64,000 bases of DNA. Source: an uncultured Actinomycetota bacterium. GTDB taxonomy: Bacteria > Actinomycetota > Actinomycetes > Propionibacteriales > Nocardioidaceae. The stretch is from the NCBI GenBank assembly GCA_963765725.1, contig CAVXXI010000001.1, positions 547,838 to 611,837 of the forward strand, read 5' to 3'. This document shows positions 3,791-46,401 of this stretch, piece after piece. The first letter of the stretch is position 1, and the number at the start of each line of letters is the position of its first letter. The position numbers and the translations under genes were made by a program. The notes under the pieces were generated by a model. The model was not told the origin of the DNA, did no database searches, and was given only the letters and a program-made list of their open reading frames with translations.

Positions 3791-3842
3791 ACGTCGAGTA
3801 TGAGCCCGCCACCGCTCCCGGAGAAGCCCGTGCCCGTCCGGC

Positions 3843-3975
3843 CGAGTGGGCACATATGTGGGCTCGAGTGGGCGGCGATGTCGGCTCGAGTGGGCGCAGA
3901 TGTCGGCGTCGAGTGGGCGCAGATGTCGGCTCGACCGGTCACATATGTCGGGTCGAGCGGGCGCATATGTCGGGT
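3843..3975 (+). repeat. 22-bp tandem repeat array, 6 units (family consensus about CGAGYGGGCGSNNATGTCGGNT)
   Basis: Units start at 3843, 3865, 3887, 3910, 3932 and 3954 and are head-to-tail with no spacers. The array is intergenic, between the kinase start and the SMP-30 gene stop. Confidence 0.9.
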
Positions 3976-6623: not shown

Positions 6624-7484
6624 GTGGGTGCTGCTGTGGGGTTGACGTTCGGGGTTGGGCTGCTGCTGATCTGGCGCGTGTTCACCGCGCCGGCGACAGC
6701 TTGGCCACGGAGCAAGCGGGCGCCGGGCTCGCGGCTTCGTCGCCTGTTGCACGAAGCCGGCCTCAGCGGCGTGAGCCCCGTCGGCCTGCTGATGTTGGCG
6801 GCGGTATGCGGCCTCGTCGCCGGATCCGTCGTTCTGGCGATCTCTGAGACGCCGCCCGTTGCAGTGGCCTTCGCGCTGATCGCCGGGTACGGCCCCATCG
6901 CGGTGGTTAGAGGCAGGGCGCAGAGCCGCCGCAGGGAGCTTGCCGAGGTGTGGCCCGAGGCGGTCGACAACCTGGCTTCCGCGATCCGCGCCGGGCTCTC
7001 GCTGCCAGAAGGGCTCACGCAGCTCGGCGAACGGGGACCGGAGCCGCTCCGGCCGGCGTTCGCGGCCTTCGGTCGTGACTATCTCGCGACCGGTCGTTTC
7101 GGTGACTGCCTCGACCGGCTCAAGGATGACCTCGCCGATCCCGTTGGTGATCGAGTCGTGGAGGCGCTGCGCATCGCGCGCGAGGTCGGCGGCGGCGACC
7201 TCGGTCGGATGCTGCGCGCGCTGTCGCGGTTCCTTCGCGACGACGCCCGCACCCGATCAGAGCTCGAGTCCCGCCAAGCCTGGGTCGTCAACGGCGCAAG
7301 GCTCGCGGCCGGCTCCCCGTGGGCCGTCCTGCTCGCCTTGTCCATACAGCACGAGGTGATCGGACGTTATCGGTCGGCGGCGGGTGTCGTCGTGCTCGCG
7401 GTCGGAGGCGCCGCGTGCGTGCTCGCGTATCGGCTGATGGTGCGACTCGGACGACTTCCACCGGAACGGCGCGTCCTCACGTGA
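6624..7484 (+). CDS. tadB: Type II secretion system F-family protein (TadB-like)
   Basis: A GTG start lies 2 nt after the tadA stop. It is a polytopic membrane protein with a T2SSF-like cytoplasmic domain (AEVWPEAVDNLASAIRAGLSLPEGL). Confidence 0.85.
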   Translation: MGAAVGLTFGVGLLLIWRVFTAPATAWPRSKRAPGSRLRRLLHEAGLSGVSPVGLLMLAAVCGLVAGSVVLAISETPPVAVAFALIAGYGPIAVVRGRAQSRRRELAEVWPEAVDNLASAIRAGLSLPEGLTQLGERGPEPLRPAFAAFGRDYLATGRFGDCLDRLKDDLADPVGDRVVEALRIAREVGGGDLGRMLRALSRFLRDDARTRSELESRQAWVVNGARLAAGSPWAVLLALSIQHEVIGRYRSAAGVVVLAVGGAACVLAYRLMVRLGRLPPERRVLT

Positions 7485-8422
7485 TCCTCGCCGCGTGGGG
7501 AGGACTCTTGGGTGGCGCAACCGGTCTCGGGATCGCTCTTGCGGTGTCCAGCCTCCTCGCAGCTCGACGCCCGACTCTCGAGAGCCGAGTCGCCCCGTAC
7601 ATCCGCGACGTGCCCAATGCCGCCCTCCGATGGCGCCCGAGGAAGACCTCCGACCGGCCCTCGACCGCACTGCGTGCGCTGGCGGTCCCTCTCCTGGAGT
7701 CAGGGGCACGGCGCCTGCAAAGCGTGCTCGGCGGACGCGAATCCGTTCGTCGCCGTCTTGAACGTGCCGGATCGGCGATGACCGTCGAGGAGTTCCGGCT
7801 CTCGCAGCTGTACTGGGGTCTGTCGGCGTTCGGGGCGTCCGTCGTGGTCGGACTGCTCGCCTCGGCGCGTCAGCCCGACCGGGCACTGCCCTGGCTGATC
7901 CTGTCGTCCGGCGCGGCTGTTGCCGCGATCCTCGCCCGCGACAGCGCGCTCAGCCGACGCGTACGACGGCGCGAGGAGCGGATGCTCGCCGAGTTCCCGG
8001 TCGTCGCGGACCTGCTAGCCCTCGCCGTCGCCGCCGGCGAAGGACCCGCAAGTGCCCTCGACCGGGTCGTCACGACCTGTCATGGCGAGCTGCCCGATGA
8101 GCTGGGGATCGTGCTCGCTCATTCGCGTACCGGGGTTCCGGTTGCGCGCGCCCTCGACGGCTTTGCGCAGCGCAACGGGTTGGCGGTCGTGTCCCGCTTC
8201 GCGGAGGGCTTCGCGGTGGCGATAGAGCGCGGGACCCCGCTCGTCGATGTCCTGGCCGCGCAGGCGGCTGACGTACGCGAGGCGACCAGACGGGCACTCA
8301 TCGAGACCGGCGCGCGCAAGGAGATCGCCATGATGGTCCCGGTCGTCTTCTTGATCATGCCGGTCACCTTGCTGTTCGCATTCTTCCCTGGAGTCGTCGG
8401 ACTCAACCTGTTGGCGCCCTGA
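7481..8422 (+). CDS. tadC: Type II secretion system F-family protein (TadC-like)
   Basis: The GTG start overlaps the tadB stop (GTGA). T2SSF-like sequence is present (EFPVVADLLALAVAAGEGPASAL...) with C-terminal TM segments. Confidence 0.85.
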   Translation: MILAAWGGLLGGATGLGIALAVSSLLAARRPTLESRVAPYIRDVPNAALRWRPRKTSDRPSTALRALAVPLLESGARRLQSVLGGRESVRRRLERAGSAMTVEEFRLSQLYWGLSAFGASVVVGLLASARQPDRALPWLILSSGAAVAAILARDSALSRRVRRREERMLAEFPVVADLLALAVAAGEGPASALDRVVTTCHGELPDELGIVLAHSRTGVPVARALDGFAQRNGLAVVSRFAEGFAVAIERGTPLVDVLAAQAADVREATRRALIETGARKEIAMMVPVVFLIMPVTLLFAFFPGVVGLNLLAP

Positions 8423-8443
8423 GCAAACCCCCTAGGAGGACGG

Positions 8444-8617
8444 ATGAAGTTACGCGCGACACTCTTGCAGCGGCTGCAGGCTCGCGACGAGAGGGGCGAT
8501 GTACCCGGTTGGGTGATGATCACGGTGATGACCATCGTGATCGCCTCGGCGATCCTCGTGATCTTCCAAGACCGCGTCACATCGTTCCTCAGCTCGACAC
8601 TCAACCAGTACATGTAG
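8444..8617 (+). CDS. Small Flp-pilin-like membrane protein (DUF4244-like), 57 aa; not in the ORF track
   Basis: AGGAGGA at 8434-8440 precedes ATG 8444. Hand translation: MKLRATLLQRLQARDERGDVPGWVMITVMTIVIASAILVIFQDRVTSFLSSTLNQYM. It has a basic leader and one hydrophobic helix, and sits directly before the TadE-like genes. Confidence 0.6.
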   Translation: MKLRATLLQRLQARDERGDVPGWVMITVMTIVIASAILVIFQDRVTSFLSSTLNQYM

Positions 8618-9022
8618 GTGACGGCCAACGCGCTCGGCCCGCTCCAACCGTCCGAGCGGGGATCTGCGCTGGCGGACTTCGCACTGGTGTCCGTCGTGCT
8701 CGTGCCACTGTTCTTCGGAGTCCTCCAGATCGCGCTGATTTGGCATGTGAAGACCACCCTCACCTCGGCCGCGTCCGAGGGCGCGCGGTACGGCGCGACG
8801 TACAACCGGTCTGCGGCCGACGGAGCACGGCATACCAGCGGCGTCATCGACGACGTCTTTGGCACGGCATTCTCGGACCGGGTGTCCGCGCAGGACATGG
8901 CAGTCGACGGTCAGCCGGCCGTCGAGGTGGACGTACGGGCACAGGTCCCCGTCTTGGCGTTCTGGGGACCGACGGTCACCGTCCACGTGAGCGGGCACGC
9001 CATCAAGGAGCTGCTGCCGTGA
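8618..9022 (+). CDS. TadE-like pilus assembly/pseudopilin protein
   Basis: The N-terminal segment GSALADFALVSVVLVPLFFGVLQIAL is typical of the TadE family. The start abuts the preceding stop. Confidence 0.8.
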   Translation: MTANALGPLQPSERGSALADFALVSVVLVPLFFGVLQIALIWHVKTTLTSAASEGARYGATYNRSAADGARHTSGVIDDVFGTAFSDRVSAQDMAVDGQPAVEVDVRAQVPVLAFWGPTVTVHVSGHAIKELLP

Positions 9023-9480
9023 GCCGGCTGCGCAGGCGGACCCCGCGAAGCAGCGAGGCCGGCTCGGCGCTCGTCGAGCTGACCTGGCTCGGGCTGCTCA
9101 TGCTCATCCCGCTCGTGTACGTCGTCATCACGATCGTCACGGTTCAACGTTCGGCTTACGGTGCGACCGAGGCGGCGCGCGCCGCCGGTCGGGCGTTCGT
9201 CCTCGCACCGGACGTGGCCACCGCCTCGCACCGTGCGTACGACGCCGCGAAGGTCGCCATGGCCGACCAGGGCGTGGCGCTGCGCGGCGACGAGATGGTG
9301 GTGCGCTGCTTGCCGACACCCCAGTCCTGTCTGCAGCCCGGTTCGACGGTGAGTGTCGAGATCCACCTCGACGTGCGACTGCCGTTCGTCCCGACGGTTT
9401 TCGGGCACTCAGCAGCGAGCTTCGCCGTGCGCGCGACGCACGCCGAGCCCTATGGGACCTTCCGTGAGGCGGCCCCGTGA
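9019..9480 (+). CDS. TadE/TadG-like pilus assembly protein
   Basis: GTGA overlap with the previous gene. N-terminal motif GSALVELTWLGLLMLIPLVYVVITI. Confidence 0.75.
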   Translation: MSRLRRRTPRSSEAGSALVELTWLGLLMLIPLVYVVITIVTVQRSAYGATEAARAAGRAFVLAPDVATASHRAYDAAKVAMADQGVALRGDEMVVRCLPTPQSCLQPGSTVSVEIHLDVRLPFVPTVFGHSAASFAVRATHAEPYGTFREAAP

Positions 9481-9929
9481 CGCGGTGGCGTACACACCAC
9501 TCGCGTTCCCGCGGCGATGACGGCCAGATCACCGCGATGCTGGTCCTGCTCAGCATCTGCCTCCTGCTGGCGATCATCGCCGTCACGGACATCTCGGGGA
9601 GCTACCTGCGACGGCAGGCAGTGTCGTCGCTGGCCGACGGCGCAGCGTTGTCGGCCTCGGACTCCGCGGTGGCCTCCGGCATCTACCGCGGTTCGGACGT
9701 GGGTTTCGTCGACCTCGATCCTGCGGCGGCGTCAGCTGCCGTCCAGGAGTACCTGCGCCGGTGCGGCGCATTCACGCGGTACCCAGGCCTCGACGCACGG
9801 GTCGTCGTCGACGGCCATGTCGTCACGGTGTACCTGACTACGCCGTACCGGCTTCCGGTCGCGATGCCGGGCGTGTCGGCCACGGCCGCCATCCACGGCA
9901 GCGCCGCAGTCGAGGTTCCGATCTACTGA
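9477..9929 (+). CDS. TadG-related putative Flp pilus-assembly protein
   Basis: GTGA overlap with the previous gene. It has an N-terminal TM helix (ITAMLVLLSICLLLAIIAV) and is the last gene of the tad cluster. Confidence 0.7.
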   Translation: MTRWRTHHSRSRGDDGQITAMLVLLSICLLLAIIAVTDISGSYLRRQAVSSLADGAALSASDSAVASGIYRGSDVGFVDLDPAAASAAVQEYLRRCGAFTRYPGLDARVVVDGHVVTVYLTTPYRLPVAMPGVSATAAIHGSAAVEVPIY

Positions 9930-10098
9930 CGACGACCCGGATGCCTCGGAGCACCGTTCCGGGAAGCGGCCGAACAACCGAAGGCGCCGACCGGGCCGTG
10001 CTCGAGACTCAACTGGCCGGGGCGCTCGGCTGCAGGGGTGTGTCACCTCGGGCGACGCGCCCTTGGGAGGAAGTCGACAAGCAAGGTGAGTGCCCGGC

Positions 10099-10252
10099 CC
10101 CCTAGCGTTGTGCCCGCTCGACGCAGCATTTGTGCCCGCTCGACGCAGCATTTGCGCCCGCTCGGCCGAGCATTCGCGCCCGCTCGGCCGAGCATTTGTG
10201 CCCGCTCGAGCCAGCATTTGTGCCCGCTCGGCCGACATTTCCGCCCGGTTGG
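10099..10252 (-). repeat. 22-bp tandem repeat array, 7 units, opposite orientation (...CATTTGYGCCCGCTCG)
   Basis: Units end in CTCG at 10120, 10142, 10164, 10186, 10208 and 10230, followed by a degenerate last unit. The array is intergenic, between the tad locus and paaA. Confidence 0.9.
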
Positions 10253-10346
10253 CGCGACAGGTCTACCCACTCGACGTAGAGGGGGAGTGTTACAGTCGCG
10301 GGGCAGATCGGTGACGGGAGTGTAATACCTCCGCTAGGATGGGGCC

Positions 10347-11339
10347 ATGTACGGAAACGACGTGGCCGAGCCCAATGACGCCAAGCCGACGGCCGACGCG
10401 GAGAGCGCATCCAGCCCTGAGTTCCAGGCGATCATCGACGGCGAGGGGCGGGTGGAGCCCCGCGACGCGATGCCCGACGCCTATCGCAAGAGCCTGATCC
10501 GCCAGATCGCGCAGCACGCGCATTCGGAGATCATCGGCATGCAACCAGAGGGCAACTGGATCAGCCGCGCCCCCAGCCTGCGCCGCAAGGCGATCCTGAT
10601 GGCGAAGGTCCAAGATGAGGCCGGACACGGCCTGTACCTGTACGCGGCCGCGGAGACCCTCGGTGCCGACCGTGCCGACCTGCTCGACCTGCTGCACTCG
10701 GGGCGGCAGAAGTACTCCTCGATCTTCAACTACCCGACGCTCACCTGGGCCGACATGGGCGCCATCGGCTGGCTCGTCGACGGCGCCGCGATCGTCAACC
10801 AGGTGCCGCTGTGCCGCTGCTCCTACGGCCCGTACGCCCGCGCGATGGTCCGCGTCTGCAAGGAGGAGTCCTTCCACCAGCGGCAGGGCTTCGAGATCCT
10901 CAACACGCTGTCGCAGGGCACGCCGGCCCAGCACGCCATGGCCCAAGACGCCGTCGACCGCTGGTGGTGGCCCAGCCTGATGATGTTCGGCCCTCCCGAC
11001 GACGCTTCCCCGAACTCGGCGCAGTCGATGGCGTGGGGCATCAAGCGGTTCAGCAACGACCAGCTGCGGCAGCGCTTCGTCGACATGACGGTTCCGCAGT
11101 CGCAGGCGCTCGGCCTGACCCTGCCCGACCCCGACCTGCGCTGGAACGCGGAGCGCGGCTCCTACGACATCGGAGAGATCGACTTCAGCGAGCTCTTCGA
11201 GGTGATCAAGGGCAACGGTCCCTGCAACTCCGCGCGCATGAACCACCGGCGCACGGCCCACGAGGAGGGCGCCTGGGTCCGCGAGGCAGCGGCGGCCTAC
11301 GCCGCGAAGCACCGCGCGCCTCAGGCGAGCGCAGCATGA
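10347..11339 (+). CDS. paaA: 1,2-phenylacetyl-CoA epoxidase subunit A
   Basis: Di-iron oxygenase family sequence ([12 protein letters not shown]...KVQDEAGHG...EESFHQRQG), at the head of a paaABCDE operon. Confidence 0.93.

Positions 11340-16015: not shown

Positions 16016-16019
<4 letters not shown>
15108..16019 (+). CDS. dapA: 4-hydroxy-tetrahydrodipicolinate synthase
   Basis: Family motifs GTTGES, TPYY and IVAVKEASGD, with thyX-dapA-rnj synteny. Confidence 0.94.
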
Positions 16020-17708
<1,689 letters not shown>

Positions 17709-20355: not shown

Positions 20356-20931
20356 TTACTCGCTCGTCTCTGCGTGCAGCATCGGGTCCCACAGGTACAC
20401 CGCACCGGTGCTCGTACCGCTCGCGACGTCGGAGATCGTGACGCGAAGGCTGTGGTGGCCAGGGCCGATGTGGCGGCAGTAGTTCTGCGCGAACGTGCCG
20501 TAGCCCTGGGCGTAGATCGGGCTGCCGTTGTTGAGGTCGGACGGAGCCATCGGGATGCCGTCCAGGAGCACCTTCACCTTGCCCTGCGAGCTGTTGGAGT
20601 CCAGGTAGTCCTGGGCGGTGAAGCTCACGCTCAGCACGTCTTTGCCGTGCCGAGGTCCGTTCACCCGGAACAGGGTGCCCGGGACGATGGTGGGGCCGTT
20701 GTTGCTGCTCGCGGAGATGGTGTCGTGGACGCCACCGTTGTACGTGGCCTTCTGGGCGCCGCCGACGCAGCTCACCTCGTTGCCGGTCTTCATGGCTCGT
20801 CCGAACGGTGCCTTCGAGTCGTGGTGCGACCCGGCGGCATCCGCCTGGAGCGTACTGGCGCTCAGCCCACCGGCCACCAGGGCGGCGGATGCAAGAACGG
20901 GCGCGGTCATGATCAATGTCTTCTTGAACAC
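20356..20931 (-). CDS. Secreted protein of unknown function
   Basis: Signal-peptide-like N-terminus MFKKTLIMTAPVLASAALVAGGLSASTLQADAA and a Gly/Ser/Asn-rich mature part. No family was recognised. Confidence 0.65.
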   Translation of the reverse strand: MFKKTLIMTAPVLASAALVAGGLSASTLQADAAGSHHDSKAPFGRAMKTGNEVSCVGGAQKATYNGGVHDTISASSNNGPTIVPGTLFRVNGPRHGKDVLSVSFTAQDYLDSNSSQGKVKVLLDGIPMAPSDLNNGSPIYAQGYGTFAQNYCRHIGPGHHSLRVTISDVASGTSTGAVYLWDPMLHAETSE

Positions 20932-21248
20932 GGGGACCTCCTCAAGTCTCGATTTCCGTGTCTTCGAGCGCTAAGGACGCCACGGGGCGGACGCTGATAC
21001 CGGCTCGATGCGACGTATCACGAGAGCGGCGGGGACCTCTTCACCTGGCCCGGTCGACTACTTCTGGGGCTCGACATGCGACGCAGAGTGACTAGGATTC
21101 CTCACCTCGGACGTGATCAGCCCAGTCACGGACGCGCAGGTATCACCGGCGGGAGGAGCGCCTCCTGAGGTCTGTGCAGTCCACAGGGATCAGCAAACCG
21201 AAGGGTCCGCTCGTGAGCCTGCACGACGCTCGTGACGCAACCGCCGGG

Positions 21249-21809
21249 ATGTCTGTGTGGGACTCGTCGGCGGAGCACTTCCGTCGCTGGCGGGCCGGTG
21301 ACCACACCGGTCTGGACGACCTCGTCCGCTCCCTGACGCCGGTGCTCTGGCACGTGGTCAGGTCCTACGGGCTCGCCGCCGAGGCGGCCGAGGACGTCGT
21401 CCAGACCGCCTGGCTGACCCTGGTACGCCGTCATGAGTCCATCAGCGACCCGCAGGCAGTGGCCGCCTGGCTCACCACGACCGCTCGACGTGAGGCCTGG
21501 CGGGTCTCGAAGACCGCCACGAAGTCGTTGGTGCTGGGCGAGGAGGTCATCGAGGCGCGGATGCCGCACGCGGCCACGGCCGAGGCGCAGGTGCTGGCCG
21601 ACGACGACCAGGAGCGGCTCTGGCAGCGCGTCCAGGAGCTGTCGCCGCGGTGCCAGCGACTGCTCCGCATCATCGCGTTCGACGACCGCCCCGACTACGC
21701 GGGCATCGCTGACGAGCTCGGCATGCCGATCGGCAGCATCGGCCCGACCAGGGGCCGCTGCCTCGCGAAGCTCAAGGCGCTCCTGACTGAGGGAGAAGAC
21801 GATGACTGA
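21249..21809 (+). CDS. ECF-type RNA polymerase sigma-70 family factor
   Basis: Region 2 (DVVQTAWLTLVRR...AWLTTTARREAWR) and region 4 (LSPRCQRLLRIIAF...YAGIADELGMPIGSIGPTRGRCLAKLK). Start placed at ATG 21249; the track ORF opens at 21174. Confidence 0.85.
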   Translation: MSVWDSSAEHFRRWRAGDHTGLDDLVRSLTPVLWHVVRSYGLAAEAAEDVVQTAWLTLVRRHESISDPQAVAAWLTTTARREAWRVSKTATKSLVLGEEVIEARMPHAATAEAQVLADDDQERLWQRVQELSPRCQRLLRIIAFDDRPDYAGIADELGMPIGSIGPTRGRCLAKLKALLTEGEDDD

Positions 21810-22266
21810 CCGCGACCCAGTGCTCGTCGACCTGGCCGCCATGTGGCGAGCCGTCGACCCGGTGCCACCCACCCTTGTCGACAAGGTGCTCGTGGCCGTC
21901 GAGACCGAGAACCTGGACGCCGAGTACGAGCTCCTCCACCTCGTGGAGCGCAGCCGCGACCTTGCCGGCGCCCGTAGCGCCGGAGAAGCCGTCACGATCT
22001 CGTTCTCCACCGGAGCGTTCTCGCTGCTTTTGCGGGTCAGCGAGGTCAGCGGCGGGCAGCGCCGCGTCGACGGCTGGGTGAGCCCGCCGCAGCCGATGCA
22101 GGTCACGGCCATCCAGCCGGAGCGTTCGGTGTCCGCTGTCGTGGACGCGCTCGGACGCTTCGAGATAGCGCGCCTGCCCAGCGGCCTAACCCGTTTCTGG
22201 CTCGTGTCCGAGGACGGGTCCGACTCGGCGGAGCAGTCATTCGCGACGCCGACATTCGAGCTGTAG
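21802..22266 (+). CDS. Hypothetical 154-aa protein, candidate non-canonical sigma-factor partner
   Basis: 8-nt overlap with the sigma gene. No TM segment and no Cys/His zinc motif. The C-terminal half looks beta-sandwich-like (VVDALGRFEIARLPSGLTRFWL). Confidence 0.7.
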   Translation: MTDRDPVLVDLAAMWRAVDPVPPTLVDKVLVAVETENLDAEYELLHLVERSRDLAGARSAGEAVTISFSTGAFSLLLRVSEVSGGQRRVDGWVSPPQPMQVTAIQPERSVSAVVDALGRFEIARLPSGLTRFWLVSEDGSDSAEQSFATPTFEL

Positions 22267-22279
22267 AAGGGATTCCTCC

Positions 22280-23899
22280 GTGGTAGACCAAGCGGCACCG
22301 AGCGCACCTGCCGAGCGTGGTGGCAGAGCGCGCCGCCGTTCCCTGGCGTACCGACGGGCCGACCGGGACCCGTCGTACCCGCCCGACCACGTGCTCGCCG
22401 AAGTCGACGGGCGTGTGCTCGACCCCGGTACGGCACTGACGGTCGACGGGATCGTCCCCCGCTCCACCGTGTATGTAGGCCCCCGGCTGGTGATCTCCGC
22501 GGATCGGGACCGCGACGAGGTCCTGGGGCTGCTGCGCGACGCCGCGAGGCCGCTCGGATGGAGGATCGACCTCGACCGCTCCTACCCGGAGTCCCGCGTG
22601 CAGGGCCGCACCACCGGTGGCCGGGCGTTGGGTCTGTCACGCTGCATCATCCGGGTCGAGTCGTCGGGTGCCGCCCTCGCACCCGACGGCTGGGTGCTGC
22701 TGCAGCAGGCCCGGGGGGCGCACGGCAAGTCGGCCCTCCGGGGGGTCGGGCTCGACCACGTCCTGTTCGTGGCGCCGCGGGCGAAGCGACCGTTCCACGA
22801 GTCCAACCCCGTGCCCAGCTCGACGGAGTTCCTGGGCGTCCCCGTCGACTCGTACGGGACGCCTGGCTACGGCGGACGACAACCGGTCGCGTACGTCGGT
22901 CCGCCACCTCACCGCCGTCCCGACAGCGATTTCGTGGCGCGGCGCAGGCCCATCGTCGCCATCCTCGACACGGGGTGCGGTGAGCACGAGTGGCTGGACG
23001 ACATCGTCGACACCTCCGTCGGGCTCAAGGTCGGCGACACCACCCTCGACATCGGCTACACCGACGCGGCGACCGACCCAGAGGTGGGTGGGGACTACGT
23101 CGGCCCACTCGACGGCGGCATCGACGAGCTGGCAGGTCACGGCACTTTCATCGCCGGCCTGGTCCACCAGGCCTGCCCGGACGCCGACATCGTCGCGTGG
23201 CGCGCGGTGAACTCCAGTGGACCGATCGTCGAGTCCGACTGGACCGACGCTCTCGCCCGGATCGTCGAGCTGGTCCGACGGCACGCCGAGGGCGAGCCCG
23301 ACGGGATGCCGGTCGATGTGCTCAACCTCTCGAGCGGCTACTACCACGAGACGCCGGGCGACGAGGAGCTGTACGACCCGACCATCCGGAGCCTGCTCGA
23401 GACGCTCGGGCGCTGCGGCACGGTCGTGGTGTGCTCCGCGGGCAACGACGCGACCGCCCGCCCGCTCTACCCCGCCGCCTTCGCGCCGTGGGACGACGCG
23501 CCGGCCGGTCCACCCGCCGATGCGCTCCCGGTCCTGTCCGTGGGCGCCTACAACCCGAACGCAACGGTCGCCCTCTTCAGCAATACCGGACCCTGGGTGC
23601 GGTGTTACGAGCCGGGTGCGGCGGTGCTGAGCACGATGCCGAAGTTCCAGGGCGGTCTCCAGCCGAGCGCCCGGACGACCGCCTACAAGCTGGTCCGCGA
23701 GTCGGTCGACCTCGACGACTTCACGAGCGGGTTCGCCCTGTGGAGTGGCACGTCGTTCGCCGCTCCGATGCTCGCGGGCAAGGTGGCGGCGGCGCTCGTC
23801 GACTCCATGCCCGCGCCGGGGACGGTCGAGGACCGGGCCGCGGCGGTTGCCCGGGGCTGGTCGGCGGTAGAGGAGATTAGCCCGGTCAGGCCACAATGA
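22280..23899 (+). CDS. Cytoplasmic S8 (subtilisin-like) serine peptidase with an unassigned N-terminal region of about 230 aa
   Basis: Asp AILDTGCG, His AGHGTFIAG, Asn SAGNDA and Ser SGTSFAAPMLAG are all present. There is no signal peptide. Confidence 0.88.
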   Translation: MVDQAAPSAPAERGGRARRRSLAYRRADRDPSYPPDHVLAEVDGRVLDPGTALTVDGIVPRSTVYVGPRLVISADRDRDEVLGLLRDAARPLGWRIDLDRSYPESRVQGRTTGGRALGLSRCIIRVESSGAALAPDGWVLLQQARGAHGKSALRGVGLDHVLFVAPRAKRPFHESNPVPSSTEFLGVPVDSYGTPGYGGRQPVAYVGPPPHRRPDSDFVARRRPIVAILDTGCGEHEWLDDIVDTSVGLKVGDTTLDIGYTDAATDPEVGGDYVGPLDGGIDELAGHGTFIAGLVHQACPDADIVAWRAVNSSGPIVESDWTDALARIVELVRRHAEGEPDGMPVDVLNLSSGYYHETPGDEELYDPTIRSLLETLGRCGTVVVCSAGNDATARPLYPAAFAPWDDAPAGPPADALPVLSVGAYNPNATVALFSNTGPWVRCYEPGAAVLSTMPKFQGGLQPSARTTAYKLVRESVDLDDFTSGFALWSGTSFAAPMLAGKVAAALVDSMPAPGTVEDRAAAVARGWSAVEEISPVRPQ

Positions 23900-23903
23900 G
23901 TAC

Positions 23904-26381
23904 GTGCTGACGGCCGCCGAGCTACATCAGCAGGGCTTGCTCGCGAGCAACGCCGGCAGGCACAAGCGCGCGCGGGGCCTGTTCGACGCGGCGCTGGAGC
24001 GCTGCGACGACGACGAGACCCGGGCGCGGATCCTGTTGAGCCTCGCCCATGTGGCGTCGGAGCTCGGCAGCCGGCAGGAGGGTCTCGAGCTGTGCGACCA
24101 GGCGCTCGCCGTCGGTGCGGTACCGCCCGACCTCGTCGGGCTGGTGCAGTCACAACGCGGGCTCCTGCTCATGCGGGCGGGTGCGGGTGATGAGGCGCTC
24201 GCCGCGTTCGCCGAGGCCCTGCGTCTGTTGCCCGCGGCTCCCCAGGCGCGGTGCCGGGTCCACCTGAATCGCGGGAACGTGTACCTGCAGCGTGGCGACG
24301 CGGTCCGCGCGAGGCGGGACTTCGAGCGGGCGTCGGCCTGCGCCGAGGAGTCCGGTGACCACGTCCAGCAGGCGCGGATCGCTCACAACATCGGCTACAC
24401 GCACCTGCTGACGGGTGACCTGATCATGGCGCTGCGGATGATGGACGCCGCTCGTACGGTGCTGGTTCCGCTGTCGCGGGTGTCCGAGGCGGTCTGCGAG
24501 CAGGACCGGGCGGAGGTCCTCTCGGCGCTCGGTATGGTTTCCGACGCCGAGGCGTCGCTGCAGGCGGCCGCGCGGGCCTTCGGCTCGCGTGGACTGAGCC
24601 AGCAGCAGGGCGAGGCGGAGTTCATCCTCGCCAAGCTGCTGCTGCTCGACCGGCCCGCCGACGCCGCAACGGTCGGTCGCCGGGCACGTCGCCGGTTCGA
24701 GCGGCGCGACAGCGTCGGCTGGGCGTTGCGCGCAGACGCGGTCGCGACGGCGGCGGAGCTCGCCTCCTCGCCGGGCGGCTCGCGGGTGCTGGAACGCGCG
24801 GATCGCCTCGCGACGCAGCTCCGCAGCGCCGGGCTGCGCACCGAGGCGTCGACCGTGCACCTGTACGCCGCGCGGGCCCTCGCGGAGCGCGGCCGCGTCG
24901 ACCCTGCCTGCGCCGAGCTCGAACGGGCGAGGGTGAGCAACCGTTCGGCGCTGACCCTGAGGCTCCTGGCCCGCGAGGTGCAGGCGAGGGTCGCAAGGCG
25001 GAAAGGCAGACGTGCCGACGTCGTACACCATCTGCGGCGCGGCCTGTCCGAGCTGCACGAGTGGCAGTCGTCGTTCGGGAGCCTGGAGCTGCAGAGCTCG
25101 CTCGTCGGTCACGGGCGCGGCTTGGCGGTCCAGGGCCTGGAGTACGCGATCGACGACGGTCGGCCCGCGGTGGTGTTCGAGTGGTCGGAGCGGGCGCGGG
25201 CGCTGGCCGGCCGGGTGCCGCCGGTACGCCCTCCTGCCGACGCGGACGCCGCCGCCGATCTCACCCGACTGCGGCAGCTGCGGCTGATGATCGCGTCGGC
25301 CGGCTCGGACCCGCCGTCCGGTGTGGAGCGCGAGGCCAGCGAGCTCACCGAACGAGTCCGCCGGCGCGCCTGGTACGACTCAGGCTCCGGCCTGGTCACC
25401 GAGCCCTGCGAGCTCGACGCGCTCGTCGCCGAGCTGCAGCGGTCCGACGGCGCGCTGGTGGCGTACCTCGCCGTGAGCTCAGAGCTGCACGCGCTCGTGG
25501 TGGCCGGAGGACGGTCGAGCCTGGTCCCGCTCGGTCCGATGTCGGTGGTGCGCGCACTGCTCGACGGCATGCAGGCCGACCTCGACGTGGCGGCGAGCAG
25601 GCTCCCCGAGGTGTTGAGGGCCGCTGTCCATGCGTCGCTGCTGCGACGGCTTGACCTGCTCTCGTCCGCACTCGTCGCGCCGATCCGCCCGTCGCTGGGT
25701 GAGGGTCCGGTTGCCGTGGTGCCGGCCGGTTCCCTCGCCGCCGTCCCGTGGCCGTTGCTCGACGGGCTCGCGGGCCGGCCGCTCACCGTCCCGCGGTCGG
25801 CCTCGTCCTGGTTGAGCGCTCGTGCGTCGCGACCCAAGGCGACGACGGCCGGCTTCGTGGCGGGTCCGGGGGTCGCGCGGGCCGAGGAGGAGGTGACGCG
25901 GGCGGCCGCGCAGTGGGCGAGCTCGTGTGTGCTCTCGGGCAGCGGCGCCCTGGCGGTGGTGGTACGCGACCTCGCCGAGACCGTCGACGTCTTCCACGTG
26001 GCGGCGCACGGCCGTCATGCCGCCGAGAACCCGCTTTTCTCCGCCGTCGAGCTCGCCGACGGCCCGCTGTTCGGGTACGACATCGACCGGCTGAAGGCCA
26101 TCCCCGCGACGGTCGTGCTCTCGGCGTGCGAAGTCGGACGGTCGTCGGTGCGGTGGGGGGAGGAGACGCTCGGCATGACCGTCGCCTGGCTGCACGCCGG
26201 GGCGCGGTGCGTCATCGCCTCACCCGCGAGTGTCAACGACGACGTGGCGTGCGAGGTGCTGGCGGCGACCCATGCCCTCCTCGCTGCTGGGGAGGCGCCC
26301 AGCAGCGCGCTGGCGTCCGCGACGCGTGCAGTGGGTTCGCATCCTCCAGCGCCGTTCATCTGCTTCGGCAGCGGCTGGTAG
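23904..26381 (+). CDS. TPR-repeat plus CHAT (caspase-like) domain protease
   Basis: N-terminal TPR-like helical repeats (about 400 aa). C-terminal CHAT domain with His (FHVAAHGRH) and Cys (VVLSACEVG). Only a 4-nt gap separates it from the S8 gene. Confidence 0.88.
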   Translation: MLTAAELHQQGLLASNAGRHKRARGLFDAALERCDDDETRARILLSLAHVASELGSRQEGLELCDQALAVGAVPPDLVGLVQSQRGLLLMRAGAGDEALAAFAEALRLLPAAPQARCRVHLNRGNVYLQRGDAVRARRDFERASACAEESGDHVQQARIAHNIGYTHLLTGDLIMALRMMDAARTVLVPLSRVSEAVCEQDRAEVLSALGMVSDAEASLQAAARAFGSRGLSQQQGEAEFILAKLLLLDRPADAATVGRRARRRFERRDSVGWALRADAVATAAELASSPGGSRVLERADRLATQLRSAGLRTEASTVHLYAARALAERGRVDPACAELERARVSNRSALTLRLLAREVQARVARRKGRRADVVHHLRRGLSELHEWQSSFGSLELQSSLVGHGRGLAVQGLEYAIDDGRPAVVFEWSERARALAGRVPPVRPPADADAAADLTRLRQLRLMIASAGSDPPSGVEREASELTERVRRRAWYDSGSGLVTEPCELDALVAELQRSDGALVAYLAVSSELHALVVAGGRSSLVPLGPMSVVRALLDGMQADLDVAASRLPEVLRAAVHASLLRRLDLLSSALVAPIRPSLGEGPVAVVPAGSLAAVPWPLLDGLAGRPLTVPRSASSWLSARASRPKATTAGFVAGPGVARAEEEVTRAAAQWASSCVLSGSGALAVVVRDLAETVDVFHVAAHGRHAAENPLFSAVELADGPLFGYDIDRLKAIPATVVLSACEVGRSSVRWGEETLGMTVAWLHAGARCVIASPASVNDDVACEVLAATHALLAAGEAPSSALASATRAVGSHPPAPFICFGSGW

Positions 26382-26384
26382 CGC

Positions 26385-26516
26385 CGAGAGGTCAGAGATG
26401 TCCGGTCGAGCGGGCGCAAATGCTGCGCCGAGCGGGCGGGAATGCTGCGCCGAGCGGGCGCAAATGCTCCGCCGAGGGGGCAGAGATGTCCGGTCGAGCG
26501 GCTGAGGATGTGCGGC
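26385..26516 (+). repeat. 22-bp tandem repeat array, 6 units
   Basis: Units start at 26385, 26407, 26429, 26451, 26473 and 26495. The array begins 4 nt after the CHAT gene stop. Confidence 0.9.
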
Positions 26517-32590: not shown

Positions 32591-32892
32591 CGAGTGGGTA
32601 GAAATGCATGCTCGAGTGGGTAGCTCTGTCCCCCTTCGACTGGGCGCAAATGTCGCTTCGAGCGGGCGCATATGTCGCGTCGACTGGGCGCGTATGCACC
32701 TTCGAGTGGGCGCGTATGCATCGTCGAGTGGGCGGATATGTGTCTCGCGTGCATGGTGTGGTCCGTTCGCTGCGCCGGCTGACGCCAACATCTGCGCCTG
32801 TTCGAGCGAGCATTTGCGCCCGCTCGACCAGACATTTGCGCCCGCTCGACCAGACGTTTGCGCCCGCTCGACCAGACATTTGCGCCCGCTCG
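32591..32892. repeat. Composite inverted array of the 22-bp repeat: 7 forward units (32591-32746), a 36-nt spacer, and 5 reverse units (32783-32892)
   Basis: Units were read directly. The forward type is CGAGTGGGCGCGTATGCATCGT and the reverse type is ACCAGACATTTGCGCCCGCTCG. Confidence 0.9.
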
Positions 32893-32972
32893 ACGGGGAA
32901 TGTGGGGGGCGATCGTGGGTACGTCGCAGGGGCTGCCCCGACGGGGGCCACGACTCGGGAGAGGACACTGCC

Positions 32973-46244: not shown

Positions 46245-46247
46245 CCT

Positions 46248-46401
46248 CGAGCGGGCGGGAATGTCCGGCCGAGCGGGCGGGAATGTTCGGCCGAGCGGGC
46301 GGGAATGTCGGGTCGAGCGGGCGGGAATGTCGGGTCGAGCGGGCGGGAATGTCGGGTCGAGCGGGCGGGAATGTCGGGTCGAGCGGGCGGGAAGCTGCAC
46401 G
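46248..46401 (+). repeat. 22-bp tandem repeat array, 7 units; the most regular copy of the family (CGAGCGGGCGGGAATGTCGGGT)
   Basis: Units start at 46248, 46270, 46292, 46314, 46336, 46358 and 46380. Four consecutive units are identical. Confidence 0.95.

Follow-up and report, generated by a model that had tools for sequence, protein, structure and literature searches.

Proteases that combine TPR repeats with a CHAT domain are abundant in bacteria, and to our knowledge a mechanism has been described for them only where they work with CRISPR (Craspase) or share a polypeptide with an anti-sigma factor (DdvA). In type III-E CRISPR loci, the TPR-CHAT protease Csx29 cleaves the linker of Csx30 when Cas7-11 binds target RNA; the N-terminal domain of Csx30 binds and inhibits a sigma factor of the extracytoplasmic function (ECF) kind, which autoregulates the locus (PMC10028731). 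In the DdvA-DdvS system of Myxococcus xanthus, the anti-sigma factor is a transmembrane protein with a three-helix, zinc-binding domain that binds the sigma factor and with a periplasmic TPR-CHAT region. Release of sigma is proposed to start with a cut by the CHAT domain in DdvA's own linker, and TPR-CHAT proteases at rest are inactive (PMC11506125). In the type III-B cascade from SAVED-CHAT to PCaspase, a CHAT protease of bacteria switches on another protease (bioRxiv 10.1101/2023.06.23.546230). Sigma factors of the group ECF54 are encoded near carboxypeptidase(-regulatory-like), subtilase, and CHAT proteins, and proteolytic control has been proposed for them (PMC8999054, citing Huang et al., 2015, J Bacteriol 197:2517, and Casas-Pastor et al., 2021). 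The ECF classification lists ECF54 among the groups without an anti-sigma factor or clear regulator, notes a nearby 4Fe-4S protein, and places the group beside the planctomycetal group ECF58 (Casas-Pastor et al., 2021, NAR 49:986; PMC7826278). Here we analyze a four-gene operon in a 64,000-nucleotide stretch (the window) of an uncultured member of the Nocardioidaceae (contig CAVXXI010000001.1 of GCA_963765725.1, positions 547,838–611,837, forward strand). It encodes an ECF sigma factor, a small protein (gene 2), an S8 subtilase, and a TPR-CHAT protease. We favor, with a probability of about 0.45, reading it as a sigma/anti-sigma switch of the ECF54 type that is self-contained and cytoplasmic, is gated by proteolysis, and feeds back positively on itself.

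All four genes lie on the plus strand and are tightly packed. The sigma gene ends at 21809 and overlaps gene 2 (21802..22266) by 8 nt; gaps of 13 and 4 nt follow before the S8 gene (22280..23899) and the TPR-CHAT gene (23904..26381). With every stop codon checked, these junctions agree exactly with those given in an earlier reading of the sequence (the original prediction). None of the four proteins has a transmembrane segment or signal peptide (maximum KD-19 score 1.63). The first gene had been called an ECF-sized sigma factor with regions 2 and 4, and profile searches concur: Pfam returns Sigma70_r2 (E 3.5e-10), a weak r4_2 match, and no further domain, placing sigma2 at residues 50–108 and sigma4 at about 147–189, and the NCBIfam model TIGR02937 gives 61.6 bits where its cutoff is 42.9. 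The NCBIfam subfamily models all score the protein far below their cutoffs and none is specific to its group; no close solved relative was found.

The operon is most likely a member of ECF54, an assignment that rests on gene context. Both are actinobacterial, both have an ECF sigma factor with sigma2 and sigma4 only, and a recognizable anti-sigma factor is absent from both. The neighbor domains of ECF54 are those of the +1, +2, and +3 genes here (a PF13620-type family for gene 2, then PF00082 and PF12770 in the next two genes), an arrangement that recurs in the more than 25 loci described below. The gene combination is accordingly not new: it is the defining neighborhood of ECF54. The original prediction had named a match to an already characterized system as grounds for refutation. 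This applies in part: the architecture is identical to the one catalogued as ECF54, but that account was drawn up in silico only, with the +1 gene taken as peptidase-type, and the full-text literature searched contained no experimental study of ECF54 or of the cassette. The 4Fe-4S neighbor is absent beside the window cassette; in Cellulomonas marina, a protein with an EndIII_4Fe-2S domain is encoded directly upstream of sigma, which fits the remark of Casas-Pastor et al. on ECF54.

Co-occurrence of the four families, which the original prediction had proposed to survey, was followed through 23 reference-genome loci, contigs with distant homologues, and two annotated records, with gene order read by tblastn using the four window proteins. 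The same set is present in more than 25 independent loci of Propionibacteriales, Micrococcales, and Streptosporangiales at 43–99% identity to the window proteins, and thus its co-occurrence is not due to chance. Carriers include Nocardioidaceae and other Propionibacteriales metagenome-assembled genomes (MAGs), Aeromicrobium, Luteipulveratus (Dermacoccaceae), Ornithinicoccus, Segeticoccus, Salinibacterium (Microbacteriaceae), and Cellulomonas marina; all relatives that bear a name are Actinomycetota. The order sigma, gene 2, S8, CHAT is seen in every locus long enough to show it (one, L028, is fragmentary), with the exceptions named here, and in most loci 3–12 nt separate S8 from CHAT. Nonomuraea gerenzanensis (Streptosporangiales) and a fragment labeled 'Bacteriophage sp.' have the order S8, sigma, gene 2, CHAT. 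The set therefore survives rearrangement, with sigma and gene 2 staying adjacent. We did not find this permuted variant in the literature searched. These data support the view that the four genes form a conserved functional unit, one that outlasts the change of gene order in Nonomuraea.

Gene 2 is the least familiar member of the set. Its product (154 aa) has no match in Pfam, NCBIfam, or PADLOC. As the original prediction had it, there is no transmembrane helix and no zinc motif (the protein has no cysteine at all), and the C-terminal half is modeled as a beta-sandwich. In an AlphaFold2 (AF2) model built from 37 sequences, with a mean predicted local distance difference test (pLDDT) score of 77, three helices (residues 5–18, 25–34, and 38–56; block-mean pLDDT about 57–72) span residues 5–56 and are followed by a sandwich at residues 63–148 (block-mean pLDDT about 80–95). 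Between them, residues 52–60 fall below a pLDDT of 50 and hold the invariant L54, G56, and R58 (L-x-G-x-R). Foldseek of the model against the PDB returned only generic Ig/CBM-type sandwiches, every one with E of at least 4e-3, and the family profile found nothing credible among PDB sequences. The first 62 residues of five orthologues matched no Pfam family even at E ≤10, so that no known anti-sigma family was recognized in this N-terminus. PF13620 (CarboxypepD_reg) is matched weakly by 18 of the 37 family members (best E 0.0011), and UniRef names the Luteipulveratus and Cellulomonas proteins after a carboxypeptidase regulatory-like domain; this weak match explains the 'carboxypeptidase' in published descriptions of ECF54. 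Judged by its model, gene 2 is a regulatory-type beta-sandwich and no peptidase.

Gene 2 is also the most specific marker of the cassette. A word-based search gave about 130 relatives, annotated as hypothetical proteins, and a profile search of 1.84 billion cluster representatives retrieved 1315 at E ≤1e-3, 448 of which reach E ≤1e-10; the length is 150–180 aa in almost every case. Longer members considered as Rosetta-stone fusions proved to be frameshifted gene calls. Sigma and gene 2 are translationally coupled: in 26 of 28 loci the stop of the one and the start of the other overlap by 1–14 nt. Tight coupling of this kind is typical of 1:1 inhibitory pairs. In Leekyejoonella antrihumi, sigma and gene 2 are intact while no S8 or CHAT gene occurs within 8 kb downstream; because the pair persists without the proteases, gene 2 is tied to sigma and not to them. 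The predicted fold (helices, linker, and sandwich) together with the coupling makes gene 2 a candidate soluble anti-sigma factor. No such helix-plus-sandwich candidate was found in the literature searched.

The S8 protein (539 aa) carries Peptidase_S8 (PF00082) at residues 223–506 (E 7e-21), within a catalytic domain encoded at nt 22892–23896. Across 32 homologues D230 (nt 22967), H287 (nt 23138), and S492 (nt 23753) are invariant and N389 (nt 23444) is at least 90% conserved, which bears out the intact active site of the original prediction; the lack of a signal peptide noted above likewise agrees with it. The N-terminal region, which had been left unassigned, was searched by Foldseek on an AF2 model (32 sequences; predicted TM-score, pTM, 0.82) and is best read as an I9-type propeptide-like domain plus a disordered linker. 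Residues ~36–162 (nt 22385–22765) form a confident beta-alpha-beta-beta-alpha-beta domain in the model. The longest Foldseek alignments (470–518 columns) are to unprocessed pro-subtilases, namely fervidolysin, pro-Tk-subtilisin, ProN-Tk-SP, and PCSK9, whereas mature subtilisins align over ~300–340 columns only; it is on this ground that we regard the protein as an intracellular zymogen. The TM-scores are modest, at 0.35–0.40. Confidence in the propeptide is only moderate because Pfam Inhibitor_I9 finds no sequence match. The comparison with pro-subtilases and with intracellular subtilisins thus has two sides: the S8 domain with its D/H/S triad and, on the model, a beta-alpha-beta-beta-alpha-beta domain ahead of it, putatively a propeptide, are present here too, whereas the lack of a signal peptide, the 40-residue disordered linker, and the silence of Pfam I9 set this protein apart. 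An S8 protease of this kind described as a propeptide-bearing zymogen was not found in the literature searched.

The disordered linker (residues 165–204, nt 22772–22891) contains a single PFHESN unit in the window protein and ends in an invariant G198-G199-R200-Q201-P202. In homologues aligned to window positions 22745–22890 (residues 156–204), the start of the linker, just past the propeptide-like domain, carries 2–5 tandem copies of a Pro/aromatic/His unit of 5–8 residues, and both the copy number and the sequence of the unit vary by lineage (PFHAG x5, PFGMT x5, PG[M/A]WxPN x3–4, PHYDSN x3, HWEIPHP x2). Pro-subtilases carry their processing tail at this position, and the tandem units may be repeated processing or pseudo-substrate sites. 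Short S8 relatives (310–360 aa) that were considered as a separate architecture belong to the same cassette, with the N-terminal part in a separate or frameshifted open reading frame (ORF).

The TPR-CHAT protein (825 aa) begins with TPR repeats (residues ~8–185, nt 23904–24473), continues through a helical middle region, and ends with the CHAT domain (PF12770; residues 583–810, nt 25650–26333; E 3e-21). The His and Cys noted in the original prediction, here H702 (nt 26007), followed by G703, and C742 (nt 26127), are invariant in the 15–18 orthologues aligned. A non-catalytic block in the middle region (residues 378–444, nt 25035–25235) is among the most conserved parts of the protein in the same set. 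Searches of all PDB chains with phmmer and with a 15-sequence profile returned, among the matches listed, generic TPR proteins and neither Csx29 nor another CHAT protease of solved structure; no 3D comparison of this protein was made.

All 28 unique loci, and Cellulomonas marina as well, have a bipartite motif, GTATCA-N16/17-CTC(C/T)T, in a fixed place 5' of sigma. Its core is GTATC(A/T) with a CTC-type -10 element; some loci have small variants, and 23 of 31 loci match the strict pattern. The motif is specific: the window has two matches in its 64 kb against 0.01 expected, both in the sigma upstream region, and Cellulomonas has one against 0.00 expected. The proximal copy in the window (P1, GTATCA-N16-CTCCT, 21140..21166, plus strand) ends 7 nt before a GTG at 21174, and in the window and 14 other loci a GTG or ATG lies 6–7 nt past the -10-like element and opens a sigma ORF of 210–219 aa. 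This promoter geometry, together with orthologue lengths of 200–219 aa, makes GTG 21174 the most likely start (giving a sigma protein of 211 aa, 21174..21809) rather than ATG 21249, and the layout suggests that the sigma mRNA is leaderless. The ECF-like geometry and the co-distribution with the cassette point to this motif as sigma's own promoter. We did not find a promoter motif of this form reported for the cassette in the literature searched. Processing of the N-terminal extension as a pro-sigma is unlikely, since its length and sequence differ between genera.

A distal copy (P2, GTATCA-N16-CTCTT, 21015..21041, plus strand) stands in the same place in the close relatives L006–L008 and is probably part of a tandem promoter. 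No conserved ORF follows it; a small ORF there was considered and dropped because it is not conserved. Further copies lie outside the cassette. The motif precedes a Peptidase_C1 (papain-family) gene in Luteipulveratus (L001, 15845–16474) and in Ornithinicoccus (L003, regions 6707–7230 and 8366–10379), where it also stands before a 104-aa ORF just past CHAT. By a precomputed Pfam match, an Inhibitor_I42 protein is encoded downstream of the C1 peptidase. These positions suggest that the regulon may hold a third protease in some genera. A divergent, minus-strand copy is found about 100 nt upstream of the sigma promoter in seven Nocardioidaceae loci (L010, L011, L013, L014, L017, L019, and L021); a short-chain dehydrogenase gene lies ~170–200 nt downstream of it in L011 and L014, and the other loci show no clear target gene. 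In the window itself, the minus strand (20356–20931) encodes, divergently from the sigma promoter region, a 191-aa protein that has a signal peptide and belongs to no Pfam family; it also accompanies the cassette in L007–L009 and L016 at 51–70% identity.

From these features we propose the following scheme. Sigma and gene 2, being translationally coupled, would be made in fixed stoichiometry. The three-helix N-terminus of gene 2 would hold sigma inactive, and its beta-sandwich would serve as a handle for the proteases. The S8 protease would start out as a zymogen, kept in check by its own I9-like propeptide, and the TPR-CHAT protein would act as both sensor and initiator protease. Triggered by a cytoplasmic cue, it would cleave a disordered linker in gene 2 (near L-x-G-x-R), in pro-S8 (near G-G-R-Q-P), or in both. 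Active S8 would then be the amplifier, and either S8 or CHAT would destroy the remaining gene 2. Freed sigma would transcribe its own leaderless operon from the GTATCA-N16/17-CTC(C/T)T promoters, closing a positive feedback loop, and would also transcribe lineage-specific targets such as the papain-like C1 peptidase of Luteipulveratus and Ornithinicoccus.

Several lines of evidence support this switch. The four families recur together and the set survives permutation; sigma and gene 2 overlap almost everywhere and are adjacent in the permuted loci; gene 2 is predicted to have three helices and an invariant linker, and in DdvA a three-helix bundle binds sigma (PMC11506125). The S8 protein is a predicted zymogen with an invariant triad, and the CHAT dyad is likewise invariant. 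The promoter motif is specific and precedes each of the sigma genes examined. Control of ECF54 by proteolysis is also an independent proposal of others (PMC8999054), and the two TPR-CHAT precedents, Csx29-Csx30 (PMC10028731) and DdvA (PMC11506125), both control an ECF sigma factor. With both proteases catalytically intact and predicted to be cytoplasmic, the protease-to-sigma logic of the original prediction is the most economical reading.

Other observations weigh against the switch. The N-terminus of gene 2, presumed to bind sigma, resembles no known anti-sigma family, the fold matches of the protein are generic, and the ECF classification gives ECF54 no anti-sigma factor (PMC7826278). Leekyejoonella shows that sigma and gene 2 can be paired with no proteases adjacent. 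The putative cleavage sites are proposed from conservation within predicted disorder alone, and the propeptide is assigned by structure, with no Pfam I9 match and modest TM-scores. That the motif is read by this sigma, and not by another factor, is likewise presumed. Finally, all four genes stand behind a promoter that appears to be autoregulated, so the proteases could equally be outputs.

That last point opens the most durable alternative, which we consider unlikely though by no means negligible. Here an ordinary sigma/anti-sigma pair would sense some other cue, possibly through the gene 2 sandwich, and sigma would switch on a two-protease effector in which CHAT activates pro-S8 or the reverse, with a C1 peptidase and inhibitors added in some genera; the effector would remodel or destroy the proteome in stress, dormancy, or cell death. 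Co-transcription of S8 and CHAT behind a sigma-type promoter fits such an arrangement, as do the same motif ahead of a Peptidase_C1 gene in two genera, the protease-free pair of Leekyejoonella, and a zymogen design that would suit a dangerous effector. Casas-Pastor et al. moreover caution that conserved neighbors may be targets and not regulators (PMC7826278). However, the four-gene set is held through permutation and deep divergence more tightly than is usual for a regulator and its regulon, no other conserved sensing component lies nearby, and in the two TPR-CHAT/sigma systems known so far the protease stands upstream of sigma (PMC11506125, PMC10028731).

Direct proteolysis of sigma is a distinctly less probable explanation. 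It dispenses with an anti-sigma factor: S8, CHAT, or both would hold the system in the off state by degrading sigma itself, and gene 2 would be an adaptor or specificity factor that brings sigma to them, a role in keeping with the 'regulatory-like' domain class of its sandwich and with the want of a recognizable anti-sigma domain. This is what has been proposed for ECF54 (PMC8999054, section 3.3), but the wording there takes gene 2 for a carboxypeptidase, which it is not. A sigma factor co-expressed with its own destroyers from an autoregulated promoter would have no obvious switch, and constitutive degradation is unlikely when S8 is predicted to be inactive as made and resting TPR-CHAT is inactive. 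That sigma and gene 2 are so tightly coupled in translation, as 1:1 inhibitory pairs typically are, also speaks against it.

How far the proposed switch resembles its precedents can now be set out. Like Craspase, the cassette encodes a cytoplasmic TPR-CHAT protease together with an ECF sigma factor and a small inhibitor, here a candidate one, and it may at best follow the same logic, in which linker cleavage frees a sigma factor that autoregulates. The differences are considerable. No CRISPR-like array was detected across the 64-kb window, as the original prediction had stated, although cas genes were not scanned for across the whole of it; the cassette is flanked by dapA, rnj, a methyltransferase gene, a GNAT gene, and ftsK, in a chromosomal housekeeping region and not a defense locus. 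S8 adds a second protease, of a different class, and what activates the system cannot be target RNA in complex with a Cas effector. Specific homology to Csx29, Csx30, or Csx31 was rejected, as none of them was reached by searches of the PDB with the CHAT sequence and profile (among the matches listed), with the gene 2 profile, or with the gene 2 model in Foldseek. There is no candidate for a Csx31-like second partner, the loci having no fifth conserved gene. 'Craspase-like', the term of the original prediction, therefore holds for domain architecture at the Pfam level and for nothing found by sequence, by profile, or in the fold of gene 2.

With DdvA the cassette shares an ECF sigma factor, a three-helix unit (sigma-binding in DdvA, predicted here), a TPR-CHAT protease, and a flexible linker. 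DdvA is, however, a single transmembrane polypeptide with a zinc CHCC ZASD and a dimeric periplasmic TPR-CHAT region with a partial active site, whereas here the Cys-free helices and the TPR-CHAT protein are separate cytoplasmic proteins, no RseP step is involved, and an S8 zymogen is added. The SAVED-CHAT/PCaspase cascade is likewise distinct: it uses cyclic oligoadenylate sensed via SAVED and a caspase-like second protease, is linked to CRISPR, and has no TPR, in contrast to the S8 and TPR found here. By analogy, then, the cassette would at best work like Craspase or DdvA and is a member of neither.

The genomic setting argues against a mobile or defensive origin. In the window the flanks read, in order, paaA/C, a PaaE-like reductase gene, thyX, dapA, rnj, and genes for a membrane protein, a methyltransferase, and a secreted protein, then the cassette, an Eis-like GNAT gene, and ftsK. 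The position beside dapA, rnj, and the membrane-protein gene recurs in 16 Nocardioidaceae/Propionibacteriales loci, among which gene 2 identity falls as low as about 51%, and the cassette has a GC content of 0.724, the window as a whole one of 0.700. Among 72,556 plasmid records searched, only two matched. One is 'plasmid I' of Nonomuraea gerenzanensis (NZ_LT559118.1, L033; PLSDB), which at 11.85 Mb is of chromosome scale, and the other is a CHAT-domain fragment on a Streptomyces megaplasmid. The sole 'phage' match, MT838002.1 (L034; 'Bacteriophage sp.', unverified, from human feces), is an actinobacterial fragment of 74% GC that carries the cassette and a cysK-like ORF; its database label, like that of 'plasmid I', is misleading. 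With the same syntenic position, ordinary GC, and no real plasmid or phage carriage, the cassette is a resident chromosomal feature and not a recent accessory insertion, contrary to the original prediction, which had placed such an insertion between rnj and ftsK. Its suggestion of phage defense also finds no support: PADLOC models gave no significant match, only sub-threshold matches to S8, the neighbors are housekeeping genes, and nothing marks the cassette as part of a defense island. Two whole-locus versions (L007 and L008), 73–75% identical, lie on separate contigs of the MAG MFD01213.bin.2.129; with identical dapA-rnj flanks, they are probably two strains in one bin and not paralogues.

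The remaining explanation, a CRISPR-less homologue of type III-E Craspase (Csx29/Csx30/Csx31/RpoE) with anti-phage or abortive-infection function, is very improbable: it can claim the TPR-CHAT and ECF sigma pairing, the cleavage of a sigma inhibitor by Csx29 (PMC10028731), and variable S8 linker repeats imaginable as fast-evolving bait, but it lacks any sequence or profile link to Csx29, any Csx30- or Csx31-like protein, and any significant PADLOC match, and the cassette is chromosomal, syntenic, and vertically inherited beside housekeeping genes, of ordinary GC and off real plasmids and phages.

Two other observations concern the window at large. Tandem repeats of ~22 bp (unit about CGAGCGGGCGCAAATGCTGCGC) are dispersed through it in both orientations, with 3–7 copies per array, at 3839–3973, 10108–10247, 26382–26501, 32634–32741, 32788–32894, and 46247–46393; the array at 26382–26501 begins immediately past the CHAT stop codon. 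The repeats have no Rfam match and are not CRISPR-like, and they may be terminator, insulator, or REP-like elements. In addition, the RNase J gene (16016–17708) is split into ORFs of 421 and 139 aa in different frames, whereas most relatives have it in one frame. The junction differs by a 1-nt indel (GTCGCAGACC versus GTCGAGACC), and rnj is also frame-broken in some long-read MAGs. An indel made in assembly, or a frameshift of recent date, probably accounts for the split, which calls for caution that the window may contain indel errors.

A more ambitious version of the proposed switch can be framed, although we regard it as doubtful in its full form. ECF54 cassettes would be a widespread, CRISPR-independent counterpart to Craspase logic, in which a TPR-CHAT sensor and an S8 zymogen form a two-step cascade that cuts a new class of zinc-free, soluble anti-sigma factor (three helices plus sandwich) at LxGxR and so flips a positive-feedback sigma switch, with the tandem units of the pro-S8 linker as cleavage or 'tripwire' sites. 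ECF54 belongs to the small number of ECF groups for which no regulator is yet listed, and the cassette is compact, with four genes, all of them predicted to encode soluble proteins, behind a predicted promoter of their own. Cultured carriers exist in Luteipulveratus mongoliensis, Cellulomonas marina, Aeromicrobium, Leekyejoonella, and Nonomuraea, and the analysis offers handles in the form of a candidate anti-sigma factor, candidate cleavage linkers, catalytic residues, and a promoter for reporters. If the proteases are outputs, the cassette would be a regulated intracellular proteolysis module, likewise uncharacterized. If the cascade model is true, it would provide both a new anti-sigma class and a second, CRISPR-free case of caspase-like control of transcription in bacteria.

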